This document shows positions 7,222-25,393 of a DNA stretch of 32,000 bases, in pieces; positions within the stretch are counted from its first letter, which is position 1; the number at the start of each line of letters is the position of its first letter. Origin of the DNA: Candidatus Syntropharchaeum caldarium (GTDB lineage: Archaea > Halobacteriota > Syntropharchaeia > Syntropharchaeales > Syntropharchaeaceae); assembly GCA_001766815.1 (NCBI GenBank), contig LYOS01000002.1:294577-326576 (forward strand). Direction: 5' to 3'. The position numbers were made by a program, and so were the translations under genes. The notes beneath the pieces were generated by a model, which searched no databases, had not been told where the DNA came from, and saw only the letters and a program-made list of their open reading frames with translations.

Positions 7222-7758
7222 TTGGTGGCAGCCGTGGCGAAACGAAATAATTTCCCGATATTTTTGGCTTTAACATGCACATACGCGCTATTCATCTTCT
7301 TCCTGTCTTCTCTATCCTCGCCACCAACCCCATCAAATGTGGGTTTCTTCATCGAGCTTGTGAAGGAAGTTATGAACTTGCTTGAAGGTCTCGGGCTTGA
7401 GTTTCTCCTCTATCCTTTTTATGCTGTATATCTGTATCCAGACAAGTTCATGCATGCTCTTCTATACATGGGCTTTGGTCTTCTATTGAATATGACCTTT
7501 CGGAATGCGAAGAATGCGGATTTGAGCAGGTACCCTGCTTTTGCTGCAGTTATAATCGGTACATTTTATGCTCTCACGGATGAGTTTCATCAGTCTTTTG
7601 TACCGTATCGCAACCCGAGCCTGACGGATCTTCTTGCAGATTTTACTGGTTTGGTACTTGCTCAACTTCTCATTCTCGTTTATCCTGGCATCCTGAAGCT
7701 GTTAAGCAAGAAAGGCAGGAAGAGGAGAAACAGTATAACCACCAGAAGGTATAAATAA
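7222..7758 (+). CDS. VanZ-like integral membrane protein
   Basis: 178 aa with about 4 TM segments. DKFMHALLYMGFGLLL and TDEFHQSFVPYRNPSLTDLLADFTGLVLA match the VanZ-like family signature. The ORF-track start is a TTG, so the exact start is uncertain. Confidence 0.65.
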   Translation: MVAAVAKRNNFPIFLALTCTYALFIFFLSSLSSPPTPSNVGFFIELVKEVMNLLEGLGLEFLLYPFYAVYLYPDKFMHALLYMGFGLLLNMTFRNAKNADLSRYPAFAAVIIGTFYALTDEFHQSFVPYRNPSLTDLLADFTGLVLAQLLILVYPGILKLLSKKGRKRRNSITTRRYK

Positions 7759-7790
7759 GTTTTGTGATATATTTTGCACGAGGGGTATTC

Positions 7791-10700
7791 GTGAAGGGAT
7801 CAACCAGGATATTATTCTTTGACCTCTTAATCGTCCTGCTATTCACATTCCTGGCGTATCTCTTTGTTCTCATTCCACCGTTTAATCAGACATCACTCAG
7901 AATTATTTTTGCGCTTCCAATACTGCTCTTCCTGCCAGGTTATCTCCTGATAGCAGCGATCTTTCCGAGAAGAGAAGAGCTGAGTGGTATTGAAAGATTC
8001 ACATTGAGTATAGGACTGAGTATCGCGATCTTTGTCTTTGATGGTTTTGCTATAAGCGTCACTCAATGGCGATTCAGGCCCACATCGATCATTTATTCAC
8101 TCTCACTGATAATATTAATCCTCACATTGATTACACTACTCGTGAGGCTCAGGATTCCAGAGGACAGACGATTCTATCTTGATCTCTCGATTTTTTCAGG
8201 TTTTATTGAATCATTACGCTCAGACGAGAGGCCGAGCGATATCGAGAAAGCACTTATAATCGCACTTGCTGGTTCGATCATAATCGCAAGCGGAATGCTC
8301 GTTTATGCCAAACTCACATTTGAGGAGGAGAAGTTCACCATGTTATACATCCTTGGTGCAGGAGGGAAAGCAGAGGATTATCCATCTGTAGTCTATCTGT
8401 TGGAACCCAGTTCCATAACCGTGGGTATTGAAAACTATGAGCATGCACCGGCGAATTATACACTCCAGGTTAAATTGGGAGGATACCTGCTTAAAGAAGA
8501 AAATCTGTCGCTTTCACATGGTGAAAAATGGGTAAATAAAGTCTATTTCACGCCAAAACACGTAGGTAAACACCTGAAACTTGAATTCGTGCTGTATAAG
8601 GATGGATCGATGATCCCCTATCGCTCGGTGCATCTATGGGTCGATTCGTTGATTGACTATGGCAATCTTACAAGGGTTCGAGAATATGCCTTATCAGATC
8701 TACCAGTCGTGGATAACCCGGACATGGAAGCAGATTCAGGCTGGATTTTTACAAAGAATATCGGATACTTCAGAGGCCATTTCACCAAATTCTATCAACT
8801 GGAGGAGAATGCAACCCTCTGTGGTTACGTGACCGATAACGTTACCAGCAAAGGGATTGCATACGCCCGTGTGAGTATTAACAACCATTATGGCTATGTA
8901 AAAACCACAACAACAAACAGCAGTGGTTATTACGAGATTCCAACAATCGCAGATCATTTCTGGATTGTATCCACCGCCAATGGCTACAGAGAAAGTGCGA
9001 CTGAATTTGATATATCCCCTGGAAAGAGGCTTGTTGTTAACATGAGTAATGATCCTCAGCCGATAGCCCAATTCAATATGACACTGGAGGAATTATCCAT
9101 CATAAATGAGACGATAGACACGCTGCCGCCTGATGAAGTACCTGAATGGATATTAACGCTTGATGGATATGTCATCGATGATGTAACCAGGCTACCGATT
9201 GCAAATGCGAGTGTGAAGGTGACGATTGAAGACATCTTTGAGAAGGTGCTTGTAACCGATCGAAGCGGGCACTTTGAGCTAAAGGCAATTCCGGGATCGG
9301 CAACGATCTCTGTTGATGCAGCAGGATACAGTGAGAAGACGACCTCATTCACGATATCTGATGATTCCACAATCGATCTAAGGCTTGAACCTGCAAACAC
9401 CACACCACCTCCATCATCCATGATGATCTTACCGATTGTGAGGGCAGGAGAGGAGGGGAACAGACCAGCGAGCGGGTTACCACCATGGGTATCTATTATC
9501 AAAGGATATGCAATCGATAATGTGACCTGTTTGCCGATTCCAGATGCAAGCATAAAGATCAGAAACGATTACGGTTTTGAGAGGTACACCACGACTGATA
9601 AGAATGGATACTTTGAGCAGAAAGTGATAACAGGCAGATCATGGGTAGAGGCTGAAGCAGATGGGTACATGAAAAGCAGTACAAGGCATGATATATCTGG
9701 TGAATATATAACTGACCTGAGACTGACGCCCGAGAGTGTCACCATTCAGGGGTACATCCATGATAATACCACAGGTGCCCCAATCTCCAACGCCCACGTG
9801 CGCTTAAAATGTGATGGGTATTCCAGCTATACCAGGACGAACACAAGCGGTTATTACGAGATTAAGACGATCGCAGGACTTATAAGGCTTGAAGTTACTA
9901 AAACAGGTTATTTTACCAATGAAACAGAGATCGAGATTCCTTATGGTGAGATACAGATAGTTAATATGACAATCGAGAGGACACCGCCACCAGCAACAGT
10001 CAGTGGGTATGTGTACTACAACCATACAGCACTTGCGGGTGTGATGGTTCTCCTGACAGATCATAAAGGTTATGAAGAAACAACTGTAACAGACAGAAAC
10101 GGATACTTCGAGACCGAGATTCTTCCTGGCCACATCTATTTACAGGTATTGCCGAGTGCTTATATGACGAGTAGTGTTGAGTTTGACGTGGGGAGTGGGG
10201 AGAGTGTGATTTTAAGAGAGATTGAGCTTGATGCGCTTCCAGAGAGTAGCTACCAGATCGATTATCCATCGAAAACACCCATACAGAAGGGATACTATGG
10301 AGAGATATATCAGGATATTGTATCAGATGAGGGTCTTGCAACCATATCGTTCAAGGTCAGCGACTCCTACACTTCAAATAGGAGTGAGGGGTATCTATTC
10401 AAGCAGGTTCTTTTGAACAATCTCGTTGTCTGGGAGGATGACGTTGCAGAGGATGAAGTCTGGCAGGAGATCAACGTCCCTGTTACACTTAATAATGGAA
10501 CAAACAGACTGGCATTACGCGTCTATGCAAAGAAAGAATCAAATAACTTCCCCCTGAGTGTGTGGTGGGATAGTATCAGGATCAAACCGTTTGAGAAGGT
10601 TACAAAAGATGTGGCTACCAGTTTCACCATCCTCGATGCAGAGGGAACCAGAGAAAATTACCCCACAAAACTTTATCTTGGCAAACCTGCGGCAGTTATT

Positions 10701-12428
10701 GCAAATATAGAAAATAACGAAGGTGAAACGATCAATTACATTCTCCAGGTTAAGCTCAACGATATATTGTTGAATAGCAAGAATGTGACCCTTGAGGATG
10801 GATCTAAATGGGAAGGAAAGATAACATTCACGCCAAATCAGATCGGTTCACTTTATAAATTGGAGTTTCTCCTATTCAAAGATGAGGTGAAAGAGGAACC
10901 TTACAAGAAGTTTACACTCTGGGTTTCATCAGATATCGACTATGATAACCTGGATCTTCTCGAAGAATATGACGTCTCACCACTTCCAGCACTCGTAAAT
11001 GGAGATATGGAATCTGGAGCATCTGATGGCTGGACGTACACCGAGCACGGCGCCAACTTCACAGGAGAAATAACCGATTCAACGATGGTCTCACCGATGC
11101 ACTCTTATGAGATCGGTCATAACGAGACACATGTTGGAGAGGGTGAGTACGCTGATATAACCCAGAACTTTACATCCGAGATCTATCCAGCCACCGTGGT
11201 AATATCATTCAACGTCAGAGATTCATACACTGCAAAGGAGGATGGTTACTTCCTGAAACAGGTTCTCCTGAATGATGAGCTGATCTGGGAAGAGGATGTT
11301 GCAGGCGATGAGGGGTGGCAGTACAAGAAGATCCCTGTACAGCTCGATGCTGGTGAAAACAGGCTTACATTGCGGCTTCTTGCTGTAAAAGCGAGTGACA
11401 ATTTCCCGATCAAACTCTGGTGGGACGATGTTAAGATAGAGCCTGTAACAGCCCTCAGAGAGGAAGCCCCCCTAACTTTCTCGATACTCGATGCAGAAGG
11501 GACAGATAAGAACTACCCAACCCAGTTACACCTTGGAGAGCCTGCAAATTTCATCAGCAAAGTCGATGTCAATGAGCGAGGGCAGATCAAATATATCTTA
11601 CAGATAAAACTTGATGGCAGGGTGCTTGAAGAGAGGAGCAGATGGCTTGAAAAGGGTATGAGATGGGAAGAAAATATATCGATTGTACCGGATCAAATAG
11701 GGGATGGACAGCAGCTTGAGTTTATGCTCTTTAGAGGGGTGGTAGAAGGTACACCATACAGGTACTTCCATCTTACAGTCTCAACAGATCTAAACTATGA
11801 TAGGATAGAGCCGCTTTTAAGATACGGGATAACTCCTCTTCCAATCCTCGATGGTGGAACGATGCAGCATATCTCAGCATGGAGCTCAAATTTTAACGGT
11901 AGTTTCAGGGGCTTTCTATCATGTGAGAACGCATCCTCACCACTATCCTATTGCATTGAGCAGAACGGCGCATCCAATAAAGGAGATTTTGGTGAGATCT
12001 GGCAGAATATAAGTGCTTCATCGGATGGTGTTGCGGTTTTATCCTTCAATGTACGGGACTCATACACCACAACATCAAGCAGTGCGAAGAACCTGACCAA
12101 AGAAGTTATCCTGAACAATAAAATCATCTGGTCAGACGATATTGCTGGCAGTGATTCAGGATATACAGGATGGGTTGTAGAGGAATACACATGGTTTGAT
12201 GATGAATGGTCGATAAAGGAAGTTCCAGCCGTTAAATCTGGATGGAGACACGTTGATGTTCCTGTGTATCTCAACCATGGTGAGAACAACCTGCGACTGG
12301 GTGTATATGCACGAGATCCTGCTGATGGACTTGCTGTCAGGACGTACTGGGACGATGTTGAGATAAAGCAGATTAGCGATCTGGTTAAGACCGGTGATAA
12401 TATCAGGATGAAACGGTATGGATGGTGA
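7791..12428 (+). CDS. Giant N-terminally membrane-anchored surface protein (DUF1616-type N-terminus; 3 x [Ig-like + CBM4/9-like] units; 5 CarboxypepD_reg-like repeats)
   Basis: The ORF is continuous from 7764 (GTG). GTG 7791 is preferred because GAGG lies 7 nt upstream. Five N-terminal TM helices are followed by a large repetitive beta-rich ectodomain. I counted 29 N-X-S/T sequons by hand. There is no C-terminal anchor. Confidence 0.85.
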   Translation: MKGSTRILFFDLLIVLLFTFLAYLFVLIPPFNQTSLRIIFALPILLFLPGYLLIAAIFPRREELSGIERFTLSIGLSIAIFVFDGFAISVTQWRFRPTSIIYSLSLIILILTLITLLVRLRIPEDRRFYLDLSIFSGFIESLRSDERPSDIEKALIIALAGSIIIASGMLVYAKLTFEEEKFTMLYILGAGGKAEDYPSVVYLLEPSSITVGIENYEHAPANYTLQVKLGGYLLKEENLSLSHGEKWVNKVYFTPKHVGKHLKLEFVLYKDGSMIPYRSVHLWVDSLIDYGNLTRVREYALSDLPVVDNPDMEADSGWIFTKNIGYFRGHFTKFYQLEENATLCGYVTDNVTSKGIAYARVSINNHYGYVKTTTTNSSGYYEIPTIADHFWIVSTANGYRESATEFDISPGKRLVVNMSNDPQPIAQFNMTLEELSIINETIDTLPPDEVPEWILTLDGYVIDDVTRLPIANASVKVTIEDIFEKVLVTDRSGHFELKAIPGSATISVDAAGYSEKTTSFTISDDSTIDLRLEPANTTPPPSSMMILPIVRAGEEGNRPASGLPPWVSIIKGYAIDNVTCLPIPDASIKIRNDYGFERYTTTDKNGYFEQKVITGRSWVEAEADGYMKSSTRHDISGEYITDLRLTPESVTIQGYIHDNTTGAPISNAHVRLKCDGYSSYTRTNTSGYYEIKTIAGLIRLEVTKTGYFTNETEIEIPYGEIQIVNMTIERTPPPATVSGYVYYNHTALAGVMVLLTDHKGYEETTVTDRNGYFETEILPGHIYLQVLPSAYMTSSVEFDVGSGESVILREIELDALPESSYQIDYPSKTPIQKGYYGEIYQDIVSDEGLATISFKVSDSYTSNRSEGYLFKQVLLNNLVVWEDDVAEDEVWQEINVPVTLNNGTNRLALRVYAKKESNNFPLSVWWDSIRIKPFEKVTKDVATSFTILDAEGTRENYPTKLYLGKPAAVIANIENNEGETINYILQVKLNDILLNSKNVTLEDGSKWEGKITFTPNQIGSLYKLEFLLFKDEVKEEPYKKFTLWVSSDIDYDNLDLLEEYDVSPLPALVNGDMESGASDGWTYTEHGANFTGEITDSTMVSPMHSYEIGHNETHVGEGEYADITQNFTSEIYPATVVISFNVRDSYTAKEDGYFLKQVLLNDELIWEEDVAGDEGWQYKKIPVQLDAGENRLTLRLLAVKASDNFPIKLWWDDVKIEPVTALREEAPLTFSILDAEGTDKNYPTQLHLGEPANFISKVDVNERGQIKYILQIKLDGRVLEERSRWLEKGMRWEENISIVPDQIGDGQQLEFMLFRGVVEGTPYRYFHLTVSTDLNYDRIEPLLRYGITPLPILDGGTMQHISAWSSNFNGSFRGFLSCENASSPLSYCIEQNGASNKGDFGEIWQNISASSDGVAVLSFNVRDSYTTTSSSAKNLTKEVILNNKIIWSDDIAGSDSGYTGWVVEEYTWFDDEWSIKEVPAVKSGWRHVDVPVYLNHGENNLRLGVYARDPADGLAVRTYWDDVEIKQISDLVKTGDNIRMKRYGW
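8340..10589 (+). repeat. Ectodomain unit 1: Ig-like module A1 (8340-8648) plus CBM-like module B1, which is split (8649-8820 and 10245-10589) by a nested repeat array
   Basis: A1 (YILGAGGKAEDYP...HLWVDS) aligns with A2 and A3. The B1 halves (PDMEADSGWIFTKN... and ...GYLFKQVLLNNLVVWEDDVAEDEVWQ...SVWWDSIRIKP) align collinearly with the uninterrupted B2 and B3. Confidence 0.8.
8821..10230 (+). repeat. Five tandem ~78-aa CarboxypepD_reg-like (PEGA/carboxypeptidase regulatory-like) domains
   Basis: The repeats lie at 8821-9048, 9159-9392, 9498-9731, 9744-9977 and 9999-10230. Each begins G-Y-[VAI]-x-D/Y-N/D-x-T and contains T-[DN]-x-[NS]-G-[YH]-[YF]-E. Pro-rich linkers (TTPPPSS, RTPPPAT) separate some of them. 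Confidence 0.8.
10617..11444 (+). repeat. Ectodomain unit 2: A2 (10617-10931) + B2 (10932-11444)
   Basis: TSFTILDAEGTRENYPTKLYLG...FTLWVSS is followed by NGDMESGASDGWTY...GYFLKQVLLNDELIWEEDVAGDEGWQ...KLWWDDVKIEP. Confidence 0.8.
11472..12371 (+). repeat. Ectodomain unit 3: A3 (11472-11786) + B3 (11787-12371)
   Basis: LTFSILDAEGTDKNYPTQLHLG...FHLTVST is followed by a B-type module ending RTYWDDVEIKQ. B3 carries an extra ~25-aa insertion (SGYTGWVVEEYTWFDDEWSIKEVPAVKS) relative to B2. Confidence 0.75.
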
Positions 12429-13450
12429 AACTTGCTATGAAAAACGCTAAGAAGCTCTTATTGCTCTGGATTGTGCTTGCAATACCGATTGTTGGGCTGG
12501 GCGGCGCTATCGGATGGATTACTGGATTTTTTCTTCATGCTCTGATTGTGATGCTTGTATTCGTCCTGCTTCTTGCCACCCTCTTCTACCTATACAGCGA
12601 CAGGATACTCCTCAGGTGGTACCATGCAGAGAAGGTGGTTGATGCTACCTCACCTCTATATGAGATCGTGCATAAGCTTGCAAAAGAAGTAGAGATCCCG
12701 GTTCCAGACGTATATATCGTGGATACGGCGATGCCGAATGCATTTGTTGTGGGTAGAAACTTTCAGCATGCATCACTGGTTGTGACCACCGGTTTAATGG
12801 AACTTCTTGAAAGTGATGAGATGGAGGCTGTGCTTGCAGATATGATTGTGCACATTAAAGAAGGAGATCTACTCACTGAAACGGAAATCGGAGCATTGGC
12901 TGGAATTTTAACTGCGCTGCCGATTATTGCCTTCTGGTGCTCGATCTTCACAGGATTTGGACAGGAGGATGATCCTGCACCGAACCTGATTAAATTCTTT
13001 GTAACCTCCCTCTTTGCACCGATAGCAGCAACGATTGTCCAGTTCGGGATCGCGGGTTCACGGCAGAAATACAGTGGGAATGCACCTGAAAAAAAGATCA
13101 AAGAAAAGCTGACGTCAGAGGAATTTTATGTAAATCCATCACATGCACACCTTTTGATCGTGAGCCCACCCTATCAGGATAATCAGGTTATACTGGACCT
13201 CAACCTTCCCACATATCATTCACTCTTTCAGAGGGTGAAACGTGAGAAATTCAACCTTAGAAGGCATCTCTTCTTCAGTTCCCTCTCGTATCTTTTTGTG
13301 CTCTTTATGATAATTGTGATCTATACATTCAGCAGAAAGGACTTTGACTTTCTCCACTCTGCTGCCATCTCAGCGGTTTATCTGAGTGCAGTTCTCATCT
13401 TTTATGCGATTATGTTGAAAATATTCAGGACTAATGCCAGGACCGCTTAA
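12422..13450 (+). CDS. M48/HtpX-like membrane protein with degenerate (probably inactive) metalloprotease motifs
   Basis: It has HtpX-like topology and conserved blocks (VPDVYIVDTAMPNAFVVGRN...ASLVVTTGLMELLESDEMEAVLA). The HExxH position reads D-M-I-V-H (12839-12853), and the distal SR-E-Y-x-AD block reads SRQKYSGN. The start is ATG 12422, overlapping the upstream stop as ATGGTGA, or ATG 12437. Confidence 0.7.
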   Translation: MVKLAMKNAKKLLLLWIVLAIPIVGLGGAIGWITGFFLHALIVMLVFVLLLATLFYLYSDRILLRWYHAEKVVDATSPLYEIVHKLAKEVEIPVPDVYIVDTAMPNAFVVGRNFQHASLVVTTGLMELLESDEMEAVLADMIVHIKEGDLLTETEIGALAGILTALPIIAFWCSIFTGFGQEDDPAPNLIKFFVTSLFAPIAATIVQFGIAGSRQKYSGNAPEKKIKEKLTSEEFYVNPSHAHLLIVSPPYQDNQVILDLNLPTYHSLFQRVKREKFNLRRHLFFSSLSYLFVLFMIIVIYTFSRKDFDFLHSAAISAVYLSAVLIFYAIMLKIFRTNARTA

Positions 13451-14276
13451 CATCTGCCATCTTGTTCAATATATACAGGAGAATTGCCACAACAATCACG
13501 AATACGATCCACCCAAGATGGACATGAACCATATACATTACCTCTTTACCATAGAAGAAGGCTGCAAGACAGATTGCTGTAACACGCATGAGATTTGCGA
13601 AATATGCAACGATGACCGTTATTCCAAGCAGCGAATAGAACTTATGCCGCTCTATCTGCTCTATCTTCATATATCCCACCATTATCCCAACCAGGAGAAA
13701 CATTGAGTACAGTCCTGAACAGGGTCCTCCGATTACGACGTTCATCTCTTCCACACCAGGAATATGAACTGTCTCGGTGGCGAGCACTTCAACAGGAATC
13801 CCTATCACGTTGAGTATTTTGACCATGGGAAGCAGAACAAAATAATGGTCAAAGATGTGCATGAATGCGATATCGAGCCTGCCAAAGATGATGAATAAAG
13901 GTATAAAGAGTAGAAGGAAGGTGGTAGACATGTACGTGCCAAACGCCCCCATCCTGCTTATCTCCTCGTTCTTTATGTCATAGGCAACAAGCGAGATGCC
14001 GAGCATGAAGGTCATAATATCCAGTGTACCGAGACTGCTCTGGGTCAGGATATTGTACGCAATGTCTGCTACAAGAATCAGGACGCCCAGTAGCATGTGT
14101 AATCTGGATTCAGGAACAATATGTGATTTACCCACCTTTATCCTTGAAATAAGTGCAAGAGCAATCAAAAGGAGAAAAATTCCGAGTGGGATGGAACCCT
14201 CGCTGATCTCAACGGTTGCACCCAGAAATAGTGCAAATATGAACAGAAACAGGATGATATTTTTAAAGTTTGTCAT
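13431..14276 (-). CDS. artC: Archaeosortase (exosortase/archaeosortase family); assigned to the PEF-CTERM-specific type (ArtC) from the adjacent cargo
   Basis: 281 aa, polytopic. The family triad is in canonical order and context: Cys186 in IGGPCSGLYSM (13719-13721), Arg231 in ANLMRVTAI, and His in HVHLGWIVF. Two PEF-CTERM genes lie immediately divergent. Confidence 0.8.
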   Translation of the reverse strand: MTNFKNIILFLFIFALFLGATVEISEGSIPLGIFLLLIALALISRIKVGKSHIVPESRLHMLLGVLILVADIAYNILTQSSLGTLDIMTFMLGISLVAYDIKNEEISRMGAFGTYMSTTFLLLFIPLFIIFGRLDIAFMHIFDHYFVLLPMVKILNVIGIPVEVLATETVHIPGVEEMNVVIGGPCSGLYSMFLLVGIMVGYMKIEQIERHKFYSLLGITVIVAYFANLMRVTAICLAAFFYGKEVMYMVHVHLGWIVFVIVVAILLYILNKMADVKRSWH

Positions 14277-14533
14277 CTTTACTGGTTTAAATTTAGCTTT
14301 CAGCTCTTATAAGTTTTTGCTCGGTGAAATTTTTTTCGCAATTAAGGCTTTGCACACCTTAAACCCCTAATTAACATGGTAACTTTGATATGGTATACTT
14401 AAACTTTTGTTTTCGATATTCGAAATTAATTTTAGCATGTTTTTACAAAGTGTCGTTAAATACTCTTAAAACTCAGTAGGAAGATGGATATATCCTAAAC
14501 TTTGAAATAAAGAAAGATCCACTCCCACACGGC

Positions 14534-14541
14534 TTTTATAA
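14534..14541 (+). promoter_or_regulatory. Candidate archaeal TATA box (TTTTATAA) for the PEF-CTERM gene pair
   Basis: It lies in the 320-nt AT-rich divergent intergenic region, about 55-60 nt upstream of ATG 14597. That spacing leaves room for a short leader carrying the AGGAGGT Shine-Dalgarno sequence. Confidence 0.3.
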
Positions 14542-14596
14542 TGCACCATATCCGTGATAACATTACAAACAAAATATAATAGGAGGTCGAGAATAA

Positions 14597-15148
14597 ATGA
14601 AAATCGAAAAAACAACAATTGTGTTTGTGATAAGTATAGCATTGCTTACGGTGATGGCAGGGACAGCGATGGCAATGCCGGCTACAGTAAATATAGCAGA
14701 CAATCCGATAATCAATCCGCTGGATGGCACTACAGTGACAACTCATACGGTGACCGTATCTGATATAGATTATGGAAACCTGGGTAATCCACAGACACGA
14801 TATATAAGCGTTATTACGGATGATCCAAATCTTCAGGTGAAGATCACAGGCAATGACGTTGATACAGGCTGGACAAGTACCACCAGAGCAGGAGGCACAT
14901 ACACTGCAAGTGGAGGAAGTGATTACACCTTTACACTCTATGTAAAAGGATCTGCAAGTGCAGATGGGAGCCACGTAACAGTATCTGACAACGAAGGAAC
15001 CAGTTATGATCCCGATGCATCAGCCGATTGCGCATCAGCTACAAGACCGGTCAATATCCCAGAGTTCGCGACAATAGCACTACCACTTGCTGCAACAATC
15101 GGGCTGTTCATCTACTTTGACAGCAGACGCAAGCGTGAAGAAGAGTGA
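14597..15148 (+). CDS. Secreted PEF-CTERM sorting-signal protein 1 (small beta-rich domain of unknown function)
   Basis: An AGGAGGT Shine-Dalgarno sequence at 14581-14587 lies 9 nt upstream of the ATG. The signal peptide is MKIEKTTIVFVISIALLTVMAGTAMA. The C-terminus PEF-ATIALPLAATIGLFIYF-DSRRKREEE has the motif + TM helix + basic tail layout. Confidence 0.85.
   Translation: MKIEKTTIVFVISIALLTVMAGTAMAMPATVNIADNPIINPLDGTTVTTHTVTVSDIDYGNLGNPQTRYISVITDDPNLQVKITGNDVDTGWTSTTRAGGTYTASGGSDYTFTLYVKGSASADGSHVTVSDNEGTSYDPDASADCASATRPVNIPEFATIALPLAATIGLFIYFDSRRKREEE
15059..15145 (+). other. PEF-CTERM sorting signal of cargo 1
   Basis: It is tripartite: a P-E-F motif, a 17-residue hydrophobic helix, and an RRKR-containing tail at the extreme C-terminus. 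Confidence 0.8.
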
Positions 15149-15206
15149 TTGGGGTTTTGAGTTTCTTCAAAGCTCTGTGAATTTTTCATAAGTGTGGAGG
15201 TGAAAA

Positions 15207-16022
15207 ATGAAAAAGACAAAAACAGCAATGGTACTTGTGGTGAGTATAGCGTTGCTTACGGTGATGACAGGGACAGCGATGGCAGCATACACGATTGACG
15301 GTGATCTCGATGATTGGGGTGTCCATCCCCCTGGCAGCTGGTACGCCAGCTCTCCTGCCAAAAGTGCAGTTGAGAACTGGGGCGATGGTCCCAATTCCGA
15401 TAGTATCAGTCCAGGTATAGAGGAATGCGATATCGAAGCGATGTACGTGGATGAAGATGTAAGTGGTCCGTATATTTATATAGCGATCATCACATCGATG
15501 CCACCAGAAGGTGTTGATTATGCCTGTGGCAGTGGTTCAATTCACCTTATATCTGGAGATCTTGCACTGGACTTCGACAACGATGGTATCTATGAGTATG
15601 GTGTAAAACTGACAGATGATAGTAGAACTGTGCCAGGTGATATAGGAGATGTATTCAGTAATCCAACGTGGGTTAAGATCACCACGCACTGCGCCCAGTC
15701 GCAGTTAGCCTTCAGTAACATCGATAGTGGTACAAAGACGGGACATGCAACGATCGTTTACACAAACTACGCAGACTGGTCATGGGATAACGGTGCAGCC
15801 AACTATGTTATCGAGATGAAGATTCCAAAGTCAGCACTTGGAATCTCCACAGAGGGCGAAGTTGACCTCTGCGCCACGGTGAGCTGTACAAACGACGTGA
15901 TAACGATCAAAGACTTTCACTACACTGAAATACCAGAATTCGCGACAATAGCACTACCACTTGCTGCAACAATCGGGCTGTTCATCTACTTTGACAATAG
16001 ACGCAAGCGCGAAGAAGAGTAA
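15207..16022 (+). CDS. Secreted PEF-CTERM sorting-signal protein 2 (mature domain begins AYTIDGDLDDWG, a CBM9/DOMON-like start motif; function unknown)
   Basis: A GGAGGTGA Shine-Dalgarno sequence at 15196-15203 precedes the start. The signal peptide is MKKTKTAMVLVVSIALLTVMTGTAMA. The C-terminus is PEF-ATIALPLAATIGLFIYF-DNRRKREEE. Confidence 0.85.
   Translation: MKKTKTAMVLVVSIALLTVMTGTAMAAYTIDGDLDDWGVHPPGSWYASSPAKSAVENWGDGPNSDSISPGIEECDIEAMYVDEDVSGPYIYIAIITSMPPEGVDYACGSGSIHLISGDLALDFDNDGIYEYGVKLTDDSRTVPGDIGDVFSNPTWVKITTHCAQSQLAFSNIDSGTKTGHATIVYTNYADWSWDNGAANYVIEMKIPKSALGISTEGEVDLCATVSCTNDVITIKDFHYTEIPEFATIALPLAATIGLFIYFDNRRKREEE
15933..16019 (+). other. PEF-CTERM sorting signal of cargo 2
   Basis: The tripartite tail is the same as in cargo 1. 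By my manual alignment, the DNA differs from 15059-15148 at only 5 of 90 positions. Confidence 0.8.
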
Positions 16023-16179
16023 GGGTTTGAGAGGATCAAGCCCTGTGAATTTTTCATAATTATGTATCGTGTTCATCCCTGAATTGGGGTAACCGTTAAG
16101 ATTATAACTTTATAAAGCTTAGATGGGGGCATGGAGTGGATACATCTCATCTATGCACTGATAATTCTCTGTATACTCG

Positions 16180-16827
16180 ATGCGATCCTCTTTTTCACCG
16201 GGATCTACCATCGATTTGGGCTATGCCAGCGGTTATTTAGCGGCAGGTGGTGCAGGTATCACAGGTGATGGTGTGAGGTTGATTAACATATCGTACATAC
16301 TGCTTATCATATTGTTCGCAGGGATCACACTCAGTGGAGGATGTCTCCAAAAGGATATAAAGACAGAGGAGATAGAAAAGTTCGAGGTGGGTGATATGAG
16401 ACTTACAAGTACCGTCTTTGATTATGGTGGCAGGATACCGCAGAAGTACACATGCGATGGAGAGGACATAAATCCGCCGCTTGTGATTGAGGATGTTCCA
16501 GCAGATGCAAAAACACTGGTTTTGATTGTTGATGACCCGGATGCACCGATGGGCACATGGGATCACTGGATTGTCTGGAATATACCAGTGATTGACAGGA
16601 TCGAAGAAGATAGTGTTCCAGGTACAGTGGGTGTGAATTCATGGGGAAGAAATGACTACGGTGGGCCATGTCCGCCATCCGGGGAACACAGGTACTTCTT
16701 CAAGCTATATGCACTGGATACAACGCTGAATCTTGATACAAACTCGACGAAAAAGGATCTTGAACGGGCGATGGAAGGGCATGTCATCGCACAGACCGAT
16801 CTGATCGGAGTATACTCAAGAGCGTAA
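16180..16827 (+). CDS. PEBP-family protein (YbhB/YbcL, Raf-kinase-inhibitor-like) with N-terminal hydrophobic signal and lipobox-like Cys
   Basis: It contains YTCDGEDINPPL, DDPDAP, WDHWIVWNIP and GPCPPSGEHRYFFKLYALD. The N-terminus ISYILLIILFAGITLSGGC puts the Cys at 16342-16344. The true start may be GTG 16273 or TTG 16279, behind a GGTGAT Shine-Dalgarno at 16264-16269, rather than ATG 16180. Confidence 0.8.
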   Translation: MRSSFSPGSTIDLGYASGYLAAGGAGITGDGVRLINISYILLIILFAGITLSGGCLQKDIKTEEIEKFEVGDMRLTSTVFDYGGRIPQKYTCDGEDINPPLVIEDVPADAKTLVLIVDDPDAPMGTWDHWIVWNIPVIDRIEEDSVPGTVGVNSWGRNDYGGPCPPSGEHRYFFKLYALDTTLNLDTNSTKKDLERAMEGHVIAQTDLIGVYSRA

Positions 16828-21843: not shown

Positions 21844-23388
21844 TCAGGAATTTCTGGCTGGTGTCACATCCAGAAAGTAAACATCCCCTTTCCTGACGCC
21901 ATCGAGTATCTCAAGCCCTGAAACCACCCTTCCAATGACGTTTGTCGAGGCTGCAATCTCACCTGTCGGACCAAATACTGGGTCGTCAATGAGCCGTATC
22001 CCGATCGTGCCTTCATGGGGCCTGCTCATGTTTGTAACACCGATCACCCCACGTTCAAACCCCACATCCTCGGCAGGTGTGTTCTCGGGCTTGATCATCA
22101 CACGCCGATCGCCACCCCTGAAGAGTATGAGTGATTCGATTGCACCGGTAACCACGAGTTTTCCAACACGATGATTTCGGTAGAGGCCCGTAACGTCCTT
22201 GAAATAATGAACAGTCTCAGGAGCCTCCTCCTCAAACAACTCCACACGCAGCAGATTATCAGGTGCGATCGCTTCGGTTTCGACCTTTCCCTGCTTAAAT
22301 ATCTCGATAGTCATATCTGGCTGCTGTGAGACGATGATCGCATCATCCGCCTCTTCACCCTTTCTAATATGTGTGATACCGATCTCTTCGAGGAGTTTTT
22401 CTGCTTCATACTGGCTCATACCAACGAGAAATACCTGTACAGGATTTGTATGAACCGCTATCTTATCTCCAAGCCTTGCAACATCAATGAGTTCGATCCC
22501 TGACCTGACCGTGCCAAAGGCGTTCATGTAGTGCTGGGGCATCCTGAGCTTTTTGTAGAAGTAGATCGAGTTTTTCCGATCGCCATCGTTCCTGAGAAAC
22601 GCCATTCCCCGATCTCGGAATGTGCGATTGTTCTCAACACCTATCTCAAATATCGGTGGACTCACCGAGCGAATGTAACTGTTCGAGACCTCATCCACCG
22701 TTAAAAATCCGTTATTATTCCTTAAATATGCCAGGAATGACTCTGCAGAGCAGGGTGCCATCTCTGATAGCTCAAGAGCGATCGATGTATAGATCTCCAT
22801 GCCATCCTCGACGACATCGGTTAAGGAGAGCCTGTCAAGAAGTGACTCAATCGCATATTCGGGTGCAATCTCCTTTATGACATCATCGATCACAAGATCC
22901 TGCAAAATTGTTCTGCCGCCACCTATCACCCGCCCGATCACTGCATCATCTGGATCTGGTGGGAGAAATAGTCGATCCTCGTGTTCAGTGCGTGCAATAC
23001 CGAGATAAGTCTCAGGGTCACCTGAGCCGATTCTAAAAAGGAAAATATCTCCGCGTTTGAGCCTGATTGAAGCTGCCGAGTACTTTGTGTCACTATCCAG
23101 CCTCACGGGTGAGAAGATCACAGCATTTTTTCCAATGATCTCAACCTTTTTTCCGATCCAGGCCTCATATATTGGATGCCATTTTTCCCGCATTCTCGCC
23201 TGGAACTTACCCTTCGTTGTTGTGAATGTGTATTTATCTGTGCGGGCTTCTATCTCTCCTTTACGCTCAACCACAAGCATATCGGGATCAAATATCGGCT
23301 CGAACTTCTCAACAAGCGATTTTACAGTTGTAACTCGATCAAGTTCTTCTTCTGAGATTATAGTACCGTTGAGCTTTATACTACGCAT
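21844..23388 (-). CDS. Probable methanogenesis marker protein 3 (UPF0288 family) with cyclophilin-like C-terminal region
   Basis: 514 aa. Its length and N-terminus (MRSIKLNGTIISEEEL) fit my recollection of the family. There are two cyclophilin-like G-rich blocks (VIGRVIGGGRTILQDL and NVIGRVVSGLEILDGV). The assignment is from memory and unverified. Confidence 0.5.
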   Translation of the reverse strand: MRSIKLNGTIISEEELDRVTTVKSLVEKFEPIFDPDMLVVERKGEIEARTDKYTFTTTKGKFQARMREKWHPIYEAWIGKKVEIIGKNAVIFSPVRLDSDTKYSAASIRLKRGDIFLFRIGSGDPETYLGIARTEHEDRLFLPPDPDDAVIGRVIGGGRTILQDLVIDDVIKEIAPEYAIESLLDRLSLTDVVEDGMEIYTSIALELSEMAPCSAESFLAYLRNNNGFLTVDEVSNSYIRSVSPPIFEIGVENNRTFRDRGMAFLRNDGDRKNSIYFYKKLRMPQHYMNAFGTVRSGIELIDVARLGDKIAVHTNPVQVFLVGMSQYEAEKLLEEIGITHIRKGEEADDAIIVSQQPDMTIEIFKQGKVETEAIAPDNLLRVELFEEEAPETVHYFKDVTGLYRNHRVGKLVVTGAIESLILFRGGDRRVMIKPENTPAEDVGFERGVIGVTNMSRPHEGTIGIRLIDDPVFGPTGEIAASTNVIGRVVSGLEILDGVRKGDVYFLDVTPARNS

Positions 23389-23857
23389 TCCCTTTCACCT
23401 TTGACTCTACCCTGATTTCCTCTATTCGCGTCTCAGGGTAATTTCCAGTTGCATCCTTCTCATTCGACTTCACCATATCCCAGATGGTAAGAAGGGCGGT
23501 GGATACGCCATTGAGTGCATCCATCTCAACACCTGTCTTTCCAACCGATTTTACTGTGGCTGATGCGGTTATATGATCATCTTCAATATCAAATTCAAGA
23601 TCAACATCGGTTATCGGAATCTGATGGCAGAGCGGGATCACATGAGGTGTGTTTTTGACTGCCATAATCCCCGCAATCCGTGCTGTCAGGAGAACATTTC
23701 CTTTCTCAACCTGCCCTTCACGAATTTTTTGGATCGTGGATTCTCTGAGTTTTATCGAACCGACCGCACGGGCAGAGCGTACAGACACTGCTTTATCAGA
23801 GATGTCCACCATCTTTGCACGATCATTCGTGATGTGCGAGAAAGCGTGGGCTGTCAT
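23381..23857 (-). CDS. moaC: Cyclic pyranopterin monophosphate synthase (molybdenum cofactor biosynthesis protein C)
   Basis: 158 aa. It contains MVDISDK, GNVLLTARIAGIMAVKNT, IPLCHQIP and GVEMDALNGVSTALLTIWDM. It overlaps the downstream gene by 8 nt. Confidence 0.92.
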   Translation of the reverse strand: MTAHAFSHITNDRAKMVDISDKAVSVRSARAVGSIKLRESTIQKIREGQVEKGNVLLTARIAGIMAVKNTPHVIPLCHQIPITDVDLEFDIEDDHITASATVKSVGKTGVEMDALNGVSTALLTIWDMVKSNEKDATGNYPETRIEEIRVESKVKGNA

Positions 23858-24315
23858 TTCTCTTTCTTGCCCCCTTTAAGCCTCGAGAACATCGATGAAA
23901 GATGGATCACATAACTACCATCACCCTTGAGGGCAACGATGAGTTCGTCACGCTCGAGCAATGCCTCAATATTAACCTCATAAGAGCCAGGTTCTATTAT
24001 TCTGACAGATTCGAGCCTTGAATCGTGCTCTATAGTTCCATCTTCGATCTTATCGATTATCTCCTCGATATCCTCAGGCGCACACTTCTTTTCGATCAGG
24101 TCTATATCTGCCTCGTGACGCTCTTCTCTTTCAGGGGGTCGCTCGCCTTCACGTATAAATAAGAACCGATTCGATCCGCAATCCGGACAGCCTGCAAGTA
24201 TTGCGTCATCGTTCTTCTCGAATACTCTTCCACACCCGATGCATTTATGTCCCACGCGGTACACCTGCTGTTTCTTACCTATTTTTTGTTGAAATGACCG
24301 CAGAGATAAAGTCAC
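23854..24315 (-). CDS. Archaeal Zn-ribbon protein (DUF2072-like)
   Basis: It contains HKCIGCGRVF...GCPDCGSNRF (4-Cys ribbon). Its stop overlaps the moaC ATG (ATGA). The maximal ORF starts at GTG 24315. GTG 24264 or 24255 (giving M-GHKC...) would avoid a 41-nt overlap and fits homolog N-termini as I recall them. Confidence 0.6.
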   Translation of the reverse strand: MTLSLRSFQQKIGKKQQVYRVGHKCIGCGRVFEKNDDAILAGCPDCGSNRFLFIREGERPPEREERHEADIDLIEKKCAPEDIEEIIDKIEDGTIEHDSRLESVRIIEPGSYEVNIEALLERDELIVALKGDGSYVIHLSSMFSRLKGGKKEK

Positions 24316-24646: not shown

Positions 24647-24650
24647 CCAA

Positions 24651-25292: not shown

Positions 25293-25393
25293 CCCGTCCC
25301 CGCTTTATCTTGATTACTGGTTAAAACTCTCTGATTGTATATAATACTTTTCTTGAAAGAAGGTTGCCAGCTCACAAGGTATCATTTCGCACC

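Follow-up and report, generated by a model that had tools for sequence, protein, structure and literature searches.

Seven predicted envelope genes in the window

In Candidatus Syntrophoarchaeum caldarius, seven consecutive genes for predicted membrane or secreted proteins sit among housekeeping genes such as hisS and trpB2, which raises the question of whether they work together or are neighbours by chance. A sequence-only reading of the 32-kb stretch of DNA that contains them (32,000 nucleotides, hereafter the window) had proposed one seven-gene envelope module. ORF and domain calls recover all seven genes at the coordinates it gave, and they confirm its domain identities and its overlaps.

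7222-7758, + strand: VanZ-family (Lipocone, VanZ-2-like) membrane protein (PF04892, 50.7 bits; NF037970, 68.9 bits)
7764-12428, + strand: predicted giant DUF1616 surface glycoprotein, 1554 aa (PF07760, 325.8 bits in 3 stretches; 5 CarboxypepD_reg)
12422-13450, + strand: ArtC-linked M48/HtpX-like pseudoprotease, 342 aa, 6 TM (Peptidase_M48, 53 bits)
13431-14276, - strand: archaeosortase C (ArtC), 281 aa, predicted Cys transpeptidase (TIGR03762, 267 bits, cut-off 100)
14277-14596, no strand: divergent intergenic region between artC and cargo 1, 320 nt, AT-rich, read from sequence
14597-15148, + strand: PEF-CTERM cargo 1, 183 aa (Sec signal peptide, ~120-aa passenger, IPEF tail at 15056-15145)
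15207-16022, + strand: PEF-CTERM cargo 2, 271 aa (signal peptide, tail at 15930-16019)
16180-16827, + strand: PEBP/YbhB-family putative lipoprotein (PF01161, 140 bits; TIGR00481)

The packing is as tight as had been described: the start of the giant follows the VanZ stop after 5 nt if it is the GTG at 7764, or after 32 nt if it is the GTG at 7791; the giant and M48-like genes overlap by 7 nt, and the convergent M48-like and artC genes share 20 nt. GC content falls to about 0.39-0.40 in the divergent region (14277-14596), which presumably holds the promoters of artC and cargo 1. The suggested comparison of GC and codon usage finds the block indistinguishable from the flanking genes, the 32-kb window contains no tRNA, and a search for flanking direct repeats returned only short matches at chance level; the earlier view that nothing speaks for mobility therefore stands.

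Archaeosortase C and its cargos

The ArtC of the window is 100% identical to P0001, whose source name is 'archaeosortase C, PEF-CTERM variant [Ca. Syntrophoarchaeum caldarius]', and residues C186, R231, H251 and H253 are invariant across the ArtC alignment (A1). The searchable literature contains no experimental study of any ArtC or PEF-CTERM protein.

13698-13730, - strand: ArtC motif GGPCSGLYSMF
within 13581-13595, - strand: ArtC R231
13509-13526, - strand: ArtC motif HVHLGW

The two cargos carry almost identical signal peptides and tails around unrelated passenger domains. Both tails have TIGR03024 as their top match over the full profile, at 13-20 bits and thus under the cut-off of 23, and both fit the consensus of IPEF, hydrophobic stretch and basic residues drawn from 38 other ArtC loci. 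Tails of this type are present at 38 of the 80 ArtC loci surveyed. The cargo 1 family (~175 aa) is present at 30 of these loci and directly follows the DUF1616 gene in Methanosarcinaceae, while full-length homologues of cargo 2 adjoin artC in L006 (72% identity), L057, L062, L068 and L069.

Conservation of the gene set around artC

Neighbourhood conservation, the check that the sequence-only reading had called for, bears out its central hypothesis: artC, the M48-like gene, DUF1616 and VanZ recurrently co-localize. Of the 37 fully flanked loci (at least 6 kb on each side of artC, from other, mutually different GTDB species), 28 have an M48/HtpX-like gene no more than 2 kb from artC, 30 have a DUF1616 gene no more than 10 kb away, and 29 have both. 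The linked loci come from ANME-1, Argoarchaeum (GoM-Arc1), ANME-2, Methanosarcina, Methanolobus and Methanococcoides (Methanosarcinaceae), Archaeoglobus and Hydrothermarchaeota, so that the artC-centred arrangement extends over several orders of archaea and a second phylum, while the order of the genes varies. The M48-like and DUF1616 genes are directly adjacent in 47 of 50 loci (median gap 206 nt), in the same direction in 16 loci and in opposite directions in 34, and they remain adjacent in L021 and L040, where an insertion parts them from artC. The M48-like gene is mostly downstream of and convergent to artC, and upstream in L056, L076 and L078. A reciprocal look-up on an independent 61-kb contig (L082) finds VanZ, DUF1616 (1445 aa) and the M48-like gene, followed by a convergent artC. 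Neither curated family models nor the searchable literature describe a link among these genes, and the earlier reading was likewise aware of none between an inactive HtpX homologue, a DUF1616 protein and an archaeosortase.

Could the adjacency be fortuitous or simply inherited, with uncoupled genes and an M48-like gene that is a decaying housekeeping HtpX paralogue? About 45 loci are from Methanosarcinaceae, many of them closely related, and this shared phylogeny means that the raw counts exaggerate the number of independent observations. Moreover, both the M48-like and the DUF1616 gene are missing from the 10 kb on either side of artC in three Methanoperedens loci, in L070 and in two ANME-1-like loci (L007 and L013), so the linkage is gone in some ANME-1 and Methanoperedens genomes. 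Against this, the neighbours are kept in at least four gene orders or orientations over phylum-level distances, gene fusions exist (VanZ-DUF1616, and the M48 core with its 2-TM module), and conservation never extends to housekeeping flanks such as hisS and trpB2 (near artC in 0 of 80 loci). We regard this explanation as largely refuted and very improbable.

The PEBP-family gene behaves differently from the other six. A module of all seven genes would account for their contiguity, for the predicted membrane or secreted nature of every product, and for a PEBP gene that reads in the same direction as the two cargo genes, after a gap of 157 nt. However, the 80 ArtC loci, even the closest (L006 and L001-L004), contain no PEBP homologue, while the other six families all recur; PEBP/YbhB is also a widespread family. 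The PEBP protein was accordingly rejected as a cassette member, and a seven-gene module is disfavoured and improbable. Its ...AGITLSGGC sequence can be read as fitting the PROSITE lipobox pattern, with an uncertain start codon:

16330-16344, + strand: PEBP lipobox-like LSGGC

The single module proposed earlier thus survives for six genes, linked by recurrence, rearranged orders and fusions. The accompanying argument from three co-occurring anchoring modes is partly coincidental, as the lipobox protein falls outside the module.

An M48-like pseudoenzyme under selection

The protein beside ArtC scores 149 bits against HtpX models, far under their cut-offs of 245-422, and carries the following features:

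12839-12853, + strand: degenerate HEXXH, DMIVH (aligned with 3cqb)
12947-12985, + strand: conserved loop FTGFGQEDDPAPN
13058-13072, + strand: lost third zinc ligand, SRQKY (motif alignment)
13223-13447, + strand: clade-specific C-terminal 2-TM module, fused
13322-13351, + strand: conserved loop YTFSRKDFDF

Its AlphaFold2 model (pLDDT 85, pTM 0.83) has HtpX and Ste24 as best Foldseek matches. AHEVSH of the solved HtpX domain 3cqb aligns to ADMIVH, and the third-ligand motif SREY becomes SRQK, followed by a deletion. With DMIVH in place of HEXXH, the third ligand missing and these deletions, the window protein cannot be a zinc protease. The description of this gene as a dead M48 is therefore correct for this genome, although it does not extend to the family as a whole, in which 31 of 57 clade members, including all from Methanosarcina, have an intact HEXXH. 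The third Glu ligand is kept in those 31 and goes missing along with HEXXH, which was lost about eight separate times (at least seven state changes by parsimony); the clade ancestor was probably an active protease.

Loss of the catalytic site did not relax constraint. dN/dS is equally low in HEXXH-degenerate (0.10-0.26) and intact (0.09-0.30) lineages, and the GFGQ.DDPAP and NPxHxHLF motifs are retained in about 55 of 57 members; a gene with such values in its degenerate copies and with its clade-specific motifs kept is not decaying. By these sequence criteria, the window protein is a maintained pseudoenzyme and the conserved role of the family is independent of catalysis. The positive-inside pattern suggests that both clade-specific loops (GFGQ-DDPAP and RKDFDF) face outside. 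Only 21 of 1.84 billion representatives contain the 2-TM module; 13 of these are small stand-alone proteins, and the module is fused to or split from the M48 core depending on the locus. In two ANME-1 genomes (L081, L084), a clade member occurs alone beside ribosomal protein genes, so that a physical complex is not demanded by the data.

It is conceivable that the M48-like protein is instead an active protease in all lineages, a dedicated 'signal-peptide peptidase' that degrades the TM remnant of PEF tails released by ArtC. HtpX and Ste24 relatives of family M48 act on membrane proteins and C-terminal tails, and the 31 members noted above keep both HEXXH and the third Glu. ArtA-type cleavage does free a C-terminal peptide (PMC7157517). 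Such an activity is impossible for the window protein, however, and equally so for 25 other members, which purifying selection nonetheless holds just as tightly; the conserved function therefore cannot be proteolysis, and we give this proposal very little credence.

The DUF1616 giant and the VanZ protein

The giant combines a membrane anchor with a long repetitive part:

7764-8321, + strand: 5-TM anchor
8325-8663, + strand: CARDB-like Ig domain
about 8811-10223, + strand: five CarboxypepD_reg domains
10239-10607 (X1), 11094-11456 (X2) and 11880-12389 (X3), + strand: copies of module X (~120-170 aa)
10617-10943 and 11460-11798, + strand: CARDB-like domains within the repeat part (internal repeats)

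Internal repeats give three copies each of the CARDB-like domain and module X. In the AlphaFold2 model of residues 1-340 (pLDDT 86), Foldseek matches the beta-sandwich to CARDB domain 3idu/2kl6 (E=2e-6) and finds no structural match for the TM bundle. The protein has 29 N-X-S/T sequons (1.87 per 100 aa), compared with 0-0.9 in four cytoplasmic neighbours. From this fold and sequon density the giant is predicted to lie at the cell surface; it has no PEF tail.

VanZ is an accessory cassette member in a subset of genomes, present in about 10 of 80 ArtC loci. It adjoins artC in some other genomes, and in-frame fusions with DUF1616 occur in L001, L010 and L056 as well as P0243, P0247, P0277 and P0320. 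The window protein keeps the motifs DKFMH (7438-7455), DEFHQ (7576-7593), PYR (7603-7620) and DLLAD (7624-7641), whose residues are conserved in 10 of 10 ArtC-linked VanZ homologues and which we read as the catalytic H/E/R/D/D set reported for VanZ/Llp1. The family is reported to be a Ca2+-dependent lipid-linked-oligosaccharide pyrophosphatase (bioRxiv 10.64898/2026.09.16.752124) and is predicted to work on the head groups of lipid carriers (PMC12419801). The cassette VanZ is thus most likely an active enzyme on lipid-linked oligosaccharides, which disfavours the passive helper role suggested for it earlier.

A membrane lipid or a glycan as possible acceptor

An intact VanZ also fits a possible, if unlikely, glycan-centred system, in which DUF1616, VanZ and the M48-like protein would help to assemble or turn over a lipid-linked surface glycan, and ArtC would join PEF-CTERM proteins to this glycan, at a branch that is an amine or a peptide, instead of to a membrane lipid. 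This would be the archaeal counterpart of bacterial exosortase/EPS loci, with a model in sortase A, which uses lipid II carrying a pentaglycine made by FemXAB. In Methanosarcinaceae, ANME-2, Argoarchaeum, L017, L019 and L082, artC abuts a conserved glycan cluster (FemAB-like protein, polysaccharide deacetylase, PIG-L deacetylase, DegT aminotransferase, GT2, GT4/DUF354, hexapeptide acetyltransferase, Wzx-type flippase and WbqC), several enzymes of which create free amines or put amino acids on glycans. However, the cassette is complete in S. caldarius with no glycan gene in the 32-kb window, including the kinds that flank artC elsewhere; in several loci 4-10 kb separate the cluster from artC, and it could simply be a separate envelope locus nearby; the Methanosarcinaceae loci with the cluster lack VanZ; and a PS-decarboxylase gene in L082 favours an ethanolamine-lipid acceptor, as for ArtA (PMC7157517).

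A proposed ArtC anchoring cassette

Taken together, we favour, at a probability of roughly 0.6, the reading that 7222-16022 is the S. caldarius copy of a conserved, vertically inherited ArtC cassette for anchoring surface proteins, which may work as follows. On the outer face of the membrane, ArtC would cut Sec-exported cargo at the PEF motif via a thioacyl intermediate and pass it to an acceptor that bears an amine; if ArtA is a guide, this may be a lipid such as archaetidylethanolamine, or alternatively a lipid-linked glycan. The M48-like protein would be a non-catalytic subunit that holds or hands over the C-terminal TM helix, or that stabilises ArtC and the DUF1616 protein, with its two invariant loops, predicted to face outward, on the side presumed for the ArtC active site; where HEXXH is retained, it may in addition break down the freed TM remnant. 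The glycosylated giant would be a surface scaffold embedded in the membrane, which the system decorates or around which it builds, and VanZ, apparently catalytically intact, would hydrolyse or recycle the polyprenyl-pyrophosphate-linked glycan carrier in local use. The PEBP lipoprotein would be a mere neighbour. Several of the observations above speak against this reading: the loci without linkage, the solitary M48-like genes of L081 and L084, the sub-threshold PEF scores, the giant's lack of a PEF tail, the presence of VanZ in a minority of loci, and a window devoid of the glycan genes seen beside artC elsewhere.

There are precedents for both parts of this argument. The synteny that artA shares with pssA and pssD led to accessory factors that experiment then confirmed (PMC7157517). 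The proposed pairing of the M48-like protein with ArtC would resemble the GPI transamidase, in which protease-fold subunits that have no zinc sites, proposed to be substrate recruiters, stand beside a Cys protease (PMC9098846). The six-gene set recurs around ArtC in many methane- and alkane-metabolising archaea, and the repeated loss of the catalytic site in a protein that selection has kept points to undescribed helper proteins for archaeal surface attachment.

The gene block and its surroundings

Each of the seven consecutive genes called in the sequence-only reading was recovered as an open reading frame (ORF) where that reading had placed it, and the products are as follows.

Genes of the block (coordinates in the window, strand, product and family evidence)
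7222-7758, plus strand: VanZ-like protein (PF04892, NF037970)
7764-12428, plus strand: giant protein of 1554 aa (DUF1616, 326 bits; five CarboxypepD_reg domains)
12422-13450, plus strand: M48/HtpX-like protein (PF01435; HtpX models at most 149 bits against cut-offs of 245-422)
13431-14276, minus strand: archaeosortase C, ArtC (TIGR03762, 267 bits against a cut-off of 100)
14597-15148, plus strand: predicted PEF-CTERM cargo 1 (no family match except the tail)
15207-16022, plus strand: predicted PEF-CTERM cargo 2 (no family match except the tail)
16180-16827, plus strand: PEBP/YbhB protein (PF01161)

The tight packing described earlier also stands, with a VanZ-giant gap of 5 or 32 nt, an overlap of 7 nt between the giant and M48-like genes, and a convergent overlap of 20 nt between the M48-like gene and artC. 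As claimed, the block sits among housekeeping genes (ribonucleotide reductase, FEN1, HisS, TrpB2/TrpD/TrpF, NadC, TIM, MoaC, MCM, GyrA and AHAS) and shows no sign of mobility: no tRNA gene lies within the 32-kb window, no integrase domain was found among the window ORFs scanned, and the direct repeats bracketing the block are just 16-17 nt matches at chance level. A composition check gave GC, GC3 and codon usage for the block that are those of its flanks. With no tRNA, bounding repeats or compositional shift, a mobile island or horizontal transfer was ruled out, and the block is native to the genome.

In the region 16180-16340, the PEBP ORF as listed begins about 30 codons before a hydrophobic signal and lipobox segment (MRSSFSPGSTIDLGYASGYLAAGGAGITGDG-VRLINISYILLIILFAGITLSGGC), and a downstream start is therefore likely. 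Further along the window, a 514-aa ORF on the minus strand (21844-23388) has as its sole Pfam signal a weak cyclophilin-type match over its last ~120 residues (E=1.4e-5), within which no single stretch passes alone, and its first ~380 residues have no Pfam match. The proximity of OapC (23854-24315) to MCM (25394-27508) and GyrA (27558-29978) suggests that a replication origin is nearby; when 24250-25450 was quickly scanned for repeats, no convincing ORB-like or origin-type ones were seen, and 24315-24651 resembles coding sequence on the minus strand.

Conservation of the artC neighbourhood

Using a 13-sequence ArtC alignment, we retrieved 80 ArtC loci with flanks of up to 10 kb, one genome per GTDB species, and then searched them with the proteins of the window. 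In the fully flanked subset, comprising the 37 loci whose flanks reach 6 kb or more to each side of artC, a member of the M48-like clade is encoded within 2 kb of artC in 28/37 loci and within 8 kb in 30/37, DUF1616 is no further than 10 kb away in 30/37, and the two occur together in 29/37. The loci represent Methanophagales (ANME-1), Ca. Argoarchaeum, ANME-2, Methanosarcina, Methanolobus, Methanococcoides, Archaeoglobus, Ca. Methanoxibalbensis and Hydrothermarchaeota, and the trio of artC, M48-like and DUF1616 genes is scattered across most of the ArtC tree.

The arrangement of the three genes varies. The M48-like gene is usually convergent with artC and just downstream of it, and is found upstream in three loci (L056, L076, L078). 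The DUF1616 and M48-like genes share a strand in 16 loci, the type to which the window belongs, and lie on opposite strands in 34, among them all Methanosarcinaceae; they adjoin each other directly in 47 of 50 loci with a median gap of 206 nt, an adjacency that is kept despite insertions of 3-7 kb separating the pair from artC (L021, L040). A reciprocal look-up from the M48-like clade returned an independent 61 kb contig, L082, that carries in order VanZ, a small ORF, DUF1616 (1445 aa), two ORFs, the M48-like gene and a convergent artC. The look-up also returned two ANME-1 genomes (L081, L084) whose M48-like gene has ribosomal protein genes, and none of its cassette partners, for neighbours. 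One of these loci, L081, shares an assembly with L007, where artC is without partners, and the M48-like gene and artC can therefore be unlinked yet both be kept. Three Methanoperedens loci and L070 likewise have no partners near artC. From the counts in the 37 loci, the varied gene orders and these unlinked exceptions, we conclude that the linkage is frequent, ancient and kept through rearrangement, and that it is not obligatory.

The families that recur at up to 10 kb from artC, and do so across unrelated lineages, are M48-like, DUF1616, VanZ and those of the two cargos (PEF1 and PEF2). HisS, TrpB2, TrpD, TrkA and PEBP were each found in 0/80 ArtC loci, and the MFS gene of the window had one weak match among the 80. 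The seven genes had been proposed to form a single functional module; six of the gene families do recur near artC, and PEBP, on its 0/80 count, is ruled out as a member of what we call the cassette (artC, M48-like, DUF1616, VanZ and the two PEF-CTERM cargos). A single-linkage ORF cluster that joined the M48-like, giant and VanZ families was not counted as an M48-DUF1616 fusion, and the only fusions verified are VanZ-DUF1616 and that of the M48 core with its C-terminal two-helix hairpin (the 2-TM module).

Archaeosortase C and its predicted PEF-CTERM cargo

The window ArtC, a predicted Cys transpeptidase for PEF-CTERM proteins, scores 267.1 bits against TIGR03762 (cut-off 100) with profile positions 3-272 of 274 aligned, also matches the exosortase family PF09721, and is 100% identical to an NCBI/UniRef protein of Ca. 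Syntrophoarchaeum caldarius named 'archaeosortase C, PEF-CTERM variant'. Residues C186, R231, H251 and H253 are unchanged throughout the 13-sequence alignment and, by comparison with Cys-173 of ArtA (PMC7157517), are probably catalytic. The pairing of ArtC with PEF-CTERM is already known (Haft et al. 2012, as cited in PMC5244752 and PMC9723798). A 2017 comparative review gave ArtC and PEF-CTERM domains as absent in ANME-1 (PMC5244752); ArtC with 61-67% identity to that of the window is encoded in the ANME-1 Methanophagales MAGs L001, L005, L007, L008, L010 and L011, and the newer MAGs revise this picture of ArtC absence.

TIGR03024 (PEF-CTERM) is the best match of both cargo tails over the full profile length, scoring 13.3 and 15.9 bits with the whole proteins and 18.7 and 20.5 bits with the tails against a cut-off of 23. 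The tail motif, IPEFATIALPLAATIGLFIYFD(S/N)RRKREEE, agrees with a 38-locus consensus, IPEF[PA]T[IV]ALP...GL.F...RRK.EE, that ends ORFs in 38/80 ArtC loci in a motif scan. A family of ~175 aa proteins homologous to cargo 1 is present in 30 ArtC loci, and in Methanosarcinaceae its gene directly follows the DUF1616 gene, while full-length homologues of cargo 2 adjoin artC in L006 (72% identity), L057, L062, L068 and L069. In Methanosarcina the genes run artC, M48-like (with HEXXH intact), DUF1616 and PEF1-like. The two cargo genes have unrelated passenger domains and closely similar ends: their signal-peptide regions (14595-14674 and 15205-15284) are 85% identical over 80 nt, their PEF tails (15056-15146 and 15930-16020) are 95% identical over 91 nt, and the 27-nt stretches just past the stop codons (15170-15196 and 16038-16064) are 89% identical. 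These homogenised ends suggest gene conversion, or passengers being swapped like cassettes while the export and sorting ends stay fixed. We also considered whether the passengers resemble modules of the giant and rejected this, as cargo 1 gave only a marginal 62-residue match (E=0.006) and a sub-threshold CarboxypepD_reg match, and cargo 2 gave no match at all. Sequence searches of the PDB with cargo 1 and cargo 2 returned nothing meaningful.

A maintained pseudoprotease and its 2-TM module

The M48-like protein of the window had been called dead, and both the HEXXH motif and the third zinc ligand are indeed gone. Its ADMIVH aligns with AHEVSH of the solved HtpX domain 3cqb, leaving the first His and the catalytic Glu missing, and at the third ligand, a Glu in the S-R-E-Y/F-x-A-D region after TM4, it has SRQKY followed by a ~19-residue deletion relative to the SREYxADE members of the clade. 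The protein matches PF01435 with 53 bits and falls far short of every HtpX cut-off, its best NCBIfam HtpX equivalog score being 148.8 bits against a cut-off of 369. An AF2 model (pLDDT 85, pTM 0.83) has an HtpX-type fold with six TM helices, and its top Foldseek matches are HtpX 3cqb (E=6.5e-5) and Ste24. The charge distribution suggests an N-in, C-in topology, which would leave two loops facing outwards, GFGQEDDPAPN between TM3 and TM4 and RKDFDF between TM5 and TM6.

The catalytic site has been lost repeatedly within the clade. H-E-x-x-H and the downstream Glu are kept in 31/57 ArtC-linked members, including all Methanosarcina, most ANME-1 and Argoarchaeum, and both motifs are lost in the 26/57 degenerate members (the window, L010, L012/L018, the Archaeoglobus locus L026, L029, L031, L056, all Methanolobus and most Methanococcoides). 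On a neighbour-joining tree, parsimony requires at least 7 changes of HEXXH state, or ~8 independent losses if regain of a lost site is excluded. Pairwise dN/dS is 0.10-0.26 in degenerate lineages versus 0.09-0.30 in intact ones, and the motifs GFGQ(E)DDPAP(N/R) and NPxHxHLF are kept in ~55/57 members. Judged by its sequence, the window protein is a maintained pseudoenzyme, and the degenerate genes are not decaying.

The last two helices of the protein (window 13223-13447) form the 2-TM module, which is specific to the clade. It is fused to the M48 core in the window, Methanosarcina and some ANME-1; many other genomes encode it in a gene of its own (~75 aa) that lies between the M48 core and artC, and separate ORFs occur in different orders (L001-L004, L010, L014, L015, L023-L025, L031, L034, L036). 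The module has only 21 matches among 1.84 billion representative proteins, of which 13 are stand-alone (58-96 aa) and 8 lie at the C-terminus of proteins of 324-471 aa. Compared with HtpX itself, the M48B membrane quality-control protease, the clade has the same fold and TM layout through TM1-4, and those members with HEXXH and Glu share its active site motifs as well. It differs in the additional C-terminal module that is sometimes its own gene, in invariant loops that we did not spot, by inspection, in the canonical HtpX sequences of the alignment, in a fixed position beside artC and DUF1616, and, for the window protein, in the loss of all three catalytic or ligand positions tested.

The DUF1616 giant and VanZ

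The giant matches DUF1616 (PF07760) with 325.8 bits against a gathering threshold of 31.6. An AF2 model of residues 1-340 (pLDDT 86) shows five TM helices and then a beta-sandwich, which in a Foldseek search of the PDB matches CARDB, complement-type and other Ig-like domains (E=2e-6). A self-comparison gives the layout as a TM anchor, a CARDB-like domain, five CarboxypepD_reg domains and then C-terminal repeats, in which a CARDB-like domain and a module of ~120-170 aa each occur three times. The protein carries 29 N-glycosylation sequons, or 1.87 per 100 residues, where four cytoplasmic neighbours have 0-0.9, and has no PEF tail. We know of no function for DUF1616. In the searchable literature the family is found only in a study that reports AglB-dependent N-glycosylation of Haloferax HVO_2173, a protein with at least 2 TM helices (PMC8241124). 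From the TM anchor, the Ig-like domains, the sequons and HVO_2173, the giant is most plausibly a glycosylated surface protein anchored in the membrane. We also considered whether the TM domain has an enzyme-like fold, and Foldseek against the PDB gave no match for the 5-TM bundle; nothing points to an enzymatic role.

VanZ passes both of its family models (PF04892, 50.7 bits versus 30.1; NF037970, 68.9 bits versus 20). Homologues occur in ~10/80 ArtC loci, in two arrangements. In ANME-1, Argoarchaeum, L056 and L082, VanZ adjoins or is fused with the DUF1616 N-terminus, with single in-frame VanZ-DUF1616 ORFs in L001, L010 and L056, and PF07760 and PF04892 occur together in four database proteins (P0243, P0247, P0277, P0320). 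In an ANME-2c-like arrangement, VanZ lies directly beside artC (L062, L066, L067, L068, L075). All ten ArtC-linked homologues have the motifs DKxxH, DExHQ, PxR and DxxAD in the same order, which in the window read DKFMH, DEFHQ, PYR and DLLAD. VanZ has recently been assigned to the Lipocone superfamily, with a predicted action on the head groups of sugars linked to lipid carriers (PMC12419801). The VanZ-2 motifs are RKxxH and DxxxD, and a preprint describes Llp1, VanZ and YfiM as Ca2+-dependent lipid-linked-oligosaccharide pyrophosphatases, with H87, E128, R137, D143 and D147 as key residues of E. faecium VanZ (bioRxiv 10.64898/2026.09.16.752124). The window motifs appear to fit the VanZ-2 pattern and to retain the H/E/R/D..D residues, a correspondence to the E. 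faecium protein by motif pattern and order only. The archaeal context, the DUF1616 fusion and the archaeosortase link are absent from the main text of both papers, and 'exosortase' and 'archaeosortase' have 0 occurrences in that of PMC12419801.

Proposed mechanism and the glycan cluster

Around these parts, with their conservation, linkage and fusions, a pseudoenzyme and a giant predicted to lie at the surface, we propose that ArtC would process the adjacent PEF-CTERM proteins on the outer membrane face, by analogy with ArtA, for which a thioacyl intermediate resolved by an amine has been proposed (PMC7157517). The M48-like protein and its 2-TM module would have a non-catalytic accessory role, either binding the tail helix or stabilising ArtC and DUF1616, and proteolysis of the released remnant by the M48-like protein would be ancestral and by now dispensable. 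The DUF1616 protein would provide a surface scaffold, and VanZ, going by its motifs, may handle a lipid-linked glycan carrier.

The main rival is a glycan-centred reading of the ArtC system. A conserved cluster for glycan biosynthesis adjoins artC in Methanosarcinaceae, ANME-2, Argoarchaeum and L082, and recalls exosortase/EPS loci and the FemXAB-made acceptor for sortase A; the cluster is absent in the window. It encodes polysaccharide-deacetylase-like, FemAB-like, DUF354/GT4 and GT2 proteins, a DegT aminotransferase, a hexapeptide acetyltransferase, a Wzx-type flippase, a PIG-L deacetylase, WbqC, and a 517-aa multi-TM protein without a Pfam match. Several of these enzymes make free amines or put amino acids on glycans, and could thereby supply an acceptor for the transpeptidase. 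The loci with the cluster are L006, L017, L019-L022, L024, L029-L064, L070, L072, L080 and L082, and it lies 0.2-10 kb from artC, on the side away from the M48-like gene.

Two further features of L082 were observed. A phosphatidylserine-decarboxylase-family gene (L082:20000-20821) lies ~9 kb from artC, and two HepT/MNT-type (nucleotidyltransferase) toxin-antitoxin pairs (L082:12646-14920) are inserted immediately next to artC, separating it from the glycan genes. In Haloferax, PssD is required for ArtA-dependent lipid anchoring (PMC7157517), and by analogy the decarboxylase gene may hint at an ethanolamine-lipid acceptor for ArtC too.

A bolder form of our proposed mechanism is a physical complex of ArtC, M48-like/2-TM and DUF1616, an 'archaeal anchor transamidase' resembling GPI transamidase, with VanZ acting on the glycan acceptor or carrier. 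The Cys transpeptidase would supply the chemistry, the pseudoprotease and the multi-TM Ig-domain subunit would recruit the signal helix and the acceptor, and the PEF-CTERM proteins would end on a glycolipid or glycan and not on a simple phospholipid. Taken jointly, we consider these claims unlikely, with a probability of roughly 0.15.

Comparison with known systems

The closest studied relative is the ArtA/PGF-CTERM system of Haloferax volcanii with PssA and PssD (PMC7157517). The transpeptidases of the two systems are homologous and keep the Cys, Arg and His residues. Both systems have Sec substrates, predicted ones in the case of ArtC, with a tripartite C-terminal sorting signal, and the accessory factors of ArtA were likewise first hinted at by gene neighbourhood, artA-pssA-pssD synteny in Methanosarcina having rightly foretold them (PMC7157517). 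In contrast, the window enzyme belongs to another subfamily and its signal is PEF, not PGF; the recurrent neighbours of ArtC are an HtpX-like (pseudo)protease, a multi-TM DUF1616 protein with Ig repeats and VanZ, and not lipid-synthesis enzymes.

In GPI transamidase (PIGK with GPAA1, PIGS, PIGT and PIGU), a Cys-protease cuts a hydrophobic C-terminal signal and attaches an amine-bearing anchor, and the complex contains metalloprotease-like membrane subunits without a zinc site, GPAA1 and PIGS being protease-fold proteins proposed to recruit substrate (PMC9098846). The components are not homologous, as M48 stands against M28/metzincin folds and the exosortase family against caspase-like PIGK, and the likeness is an analogy only: the cassette is known from genes, and the complex is hypothetical.

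Bacterial exosortase (EpsH/XrtA)/PEP-CTERM systems of EPS loci use enzymes of the family to which ArtC belongs (PF09721), and the polysaccharide-biosynthesis genes that artC abuts in many other archaea extend the likeness, whereas the window cassette has no glycan genes beside it. We know of no described bacterial exosortase system that includes M48-like, DUF1616 or VanZ partners.

Novelty and significance

The ArtC/PEF-CTERM pair is known; what appears to be new is its association with M48-like, DUF1616 and VanZ proteins, for which the mechanism is inferred and the linkage is not universal. The sequence-only reading was aware of no described link between an HtpX homolog, a DUF1616 protein and an archaeosortase, and the searchable literature bears this out, containing no paper that pairs an archaeosortase or exosortase with HtpX/M48, DUF1616 or VanZ, with a passing mention in Haft et al. 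2012 possible. Among the models of NCBIfam release 20, none covers the M48-like clade, the 2-TM module, the DUF1616 subfamily linked to ArtC or the cargo families. With its catalytic site lost ~8 times independently while purifying selection stayed the same, the clade offers a clean natural case of a protease becoming a pseudoenzyme subunit.

Archaeosortases anchor S-layer and other surface proteins, and to our knowledge ArtA is the only one that has been studied, its helpers having been found through gene neighbourhood. ArtC/PEF-CTERM is present in archaea that oxidise methane or alkanes (ANME-1, ANME-2, Syntrophoarchaeum and Argoarchaeum), whose surfaces mediate syntrophic contact and extracellular electron transfer, and also in Methanosarcina, which is genetically tractable. 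A conserved partner set made up of an HtpX-like (pseudo)protease with a small 2-TM protein, a DUF1616 protein and VanZ would yield the first candidates for ArtC substrate recognition, for the attachment target and for handling of the released tail, and DUF1616 would gain a context from the cassette.
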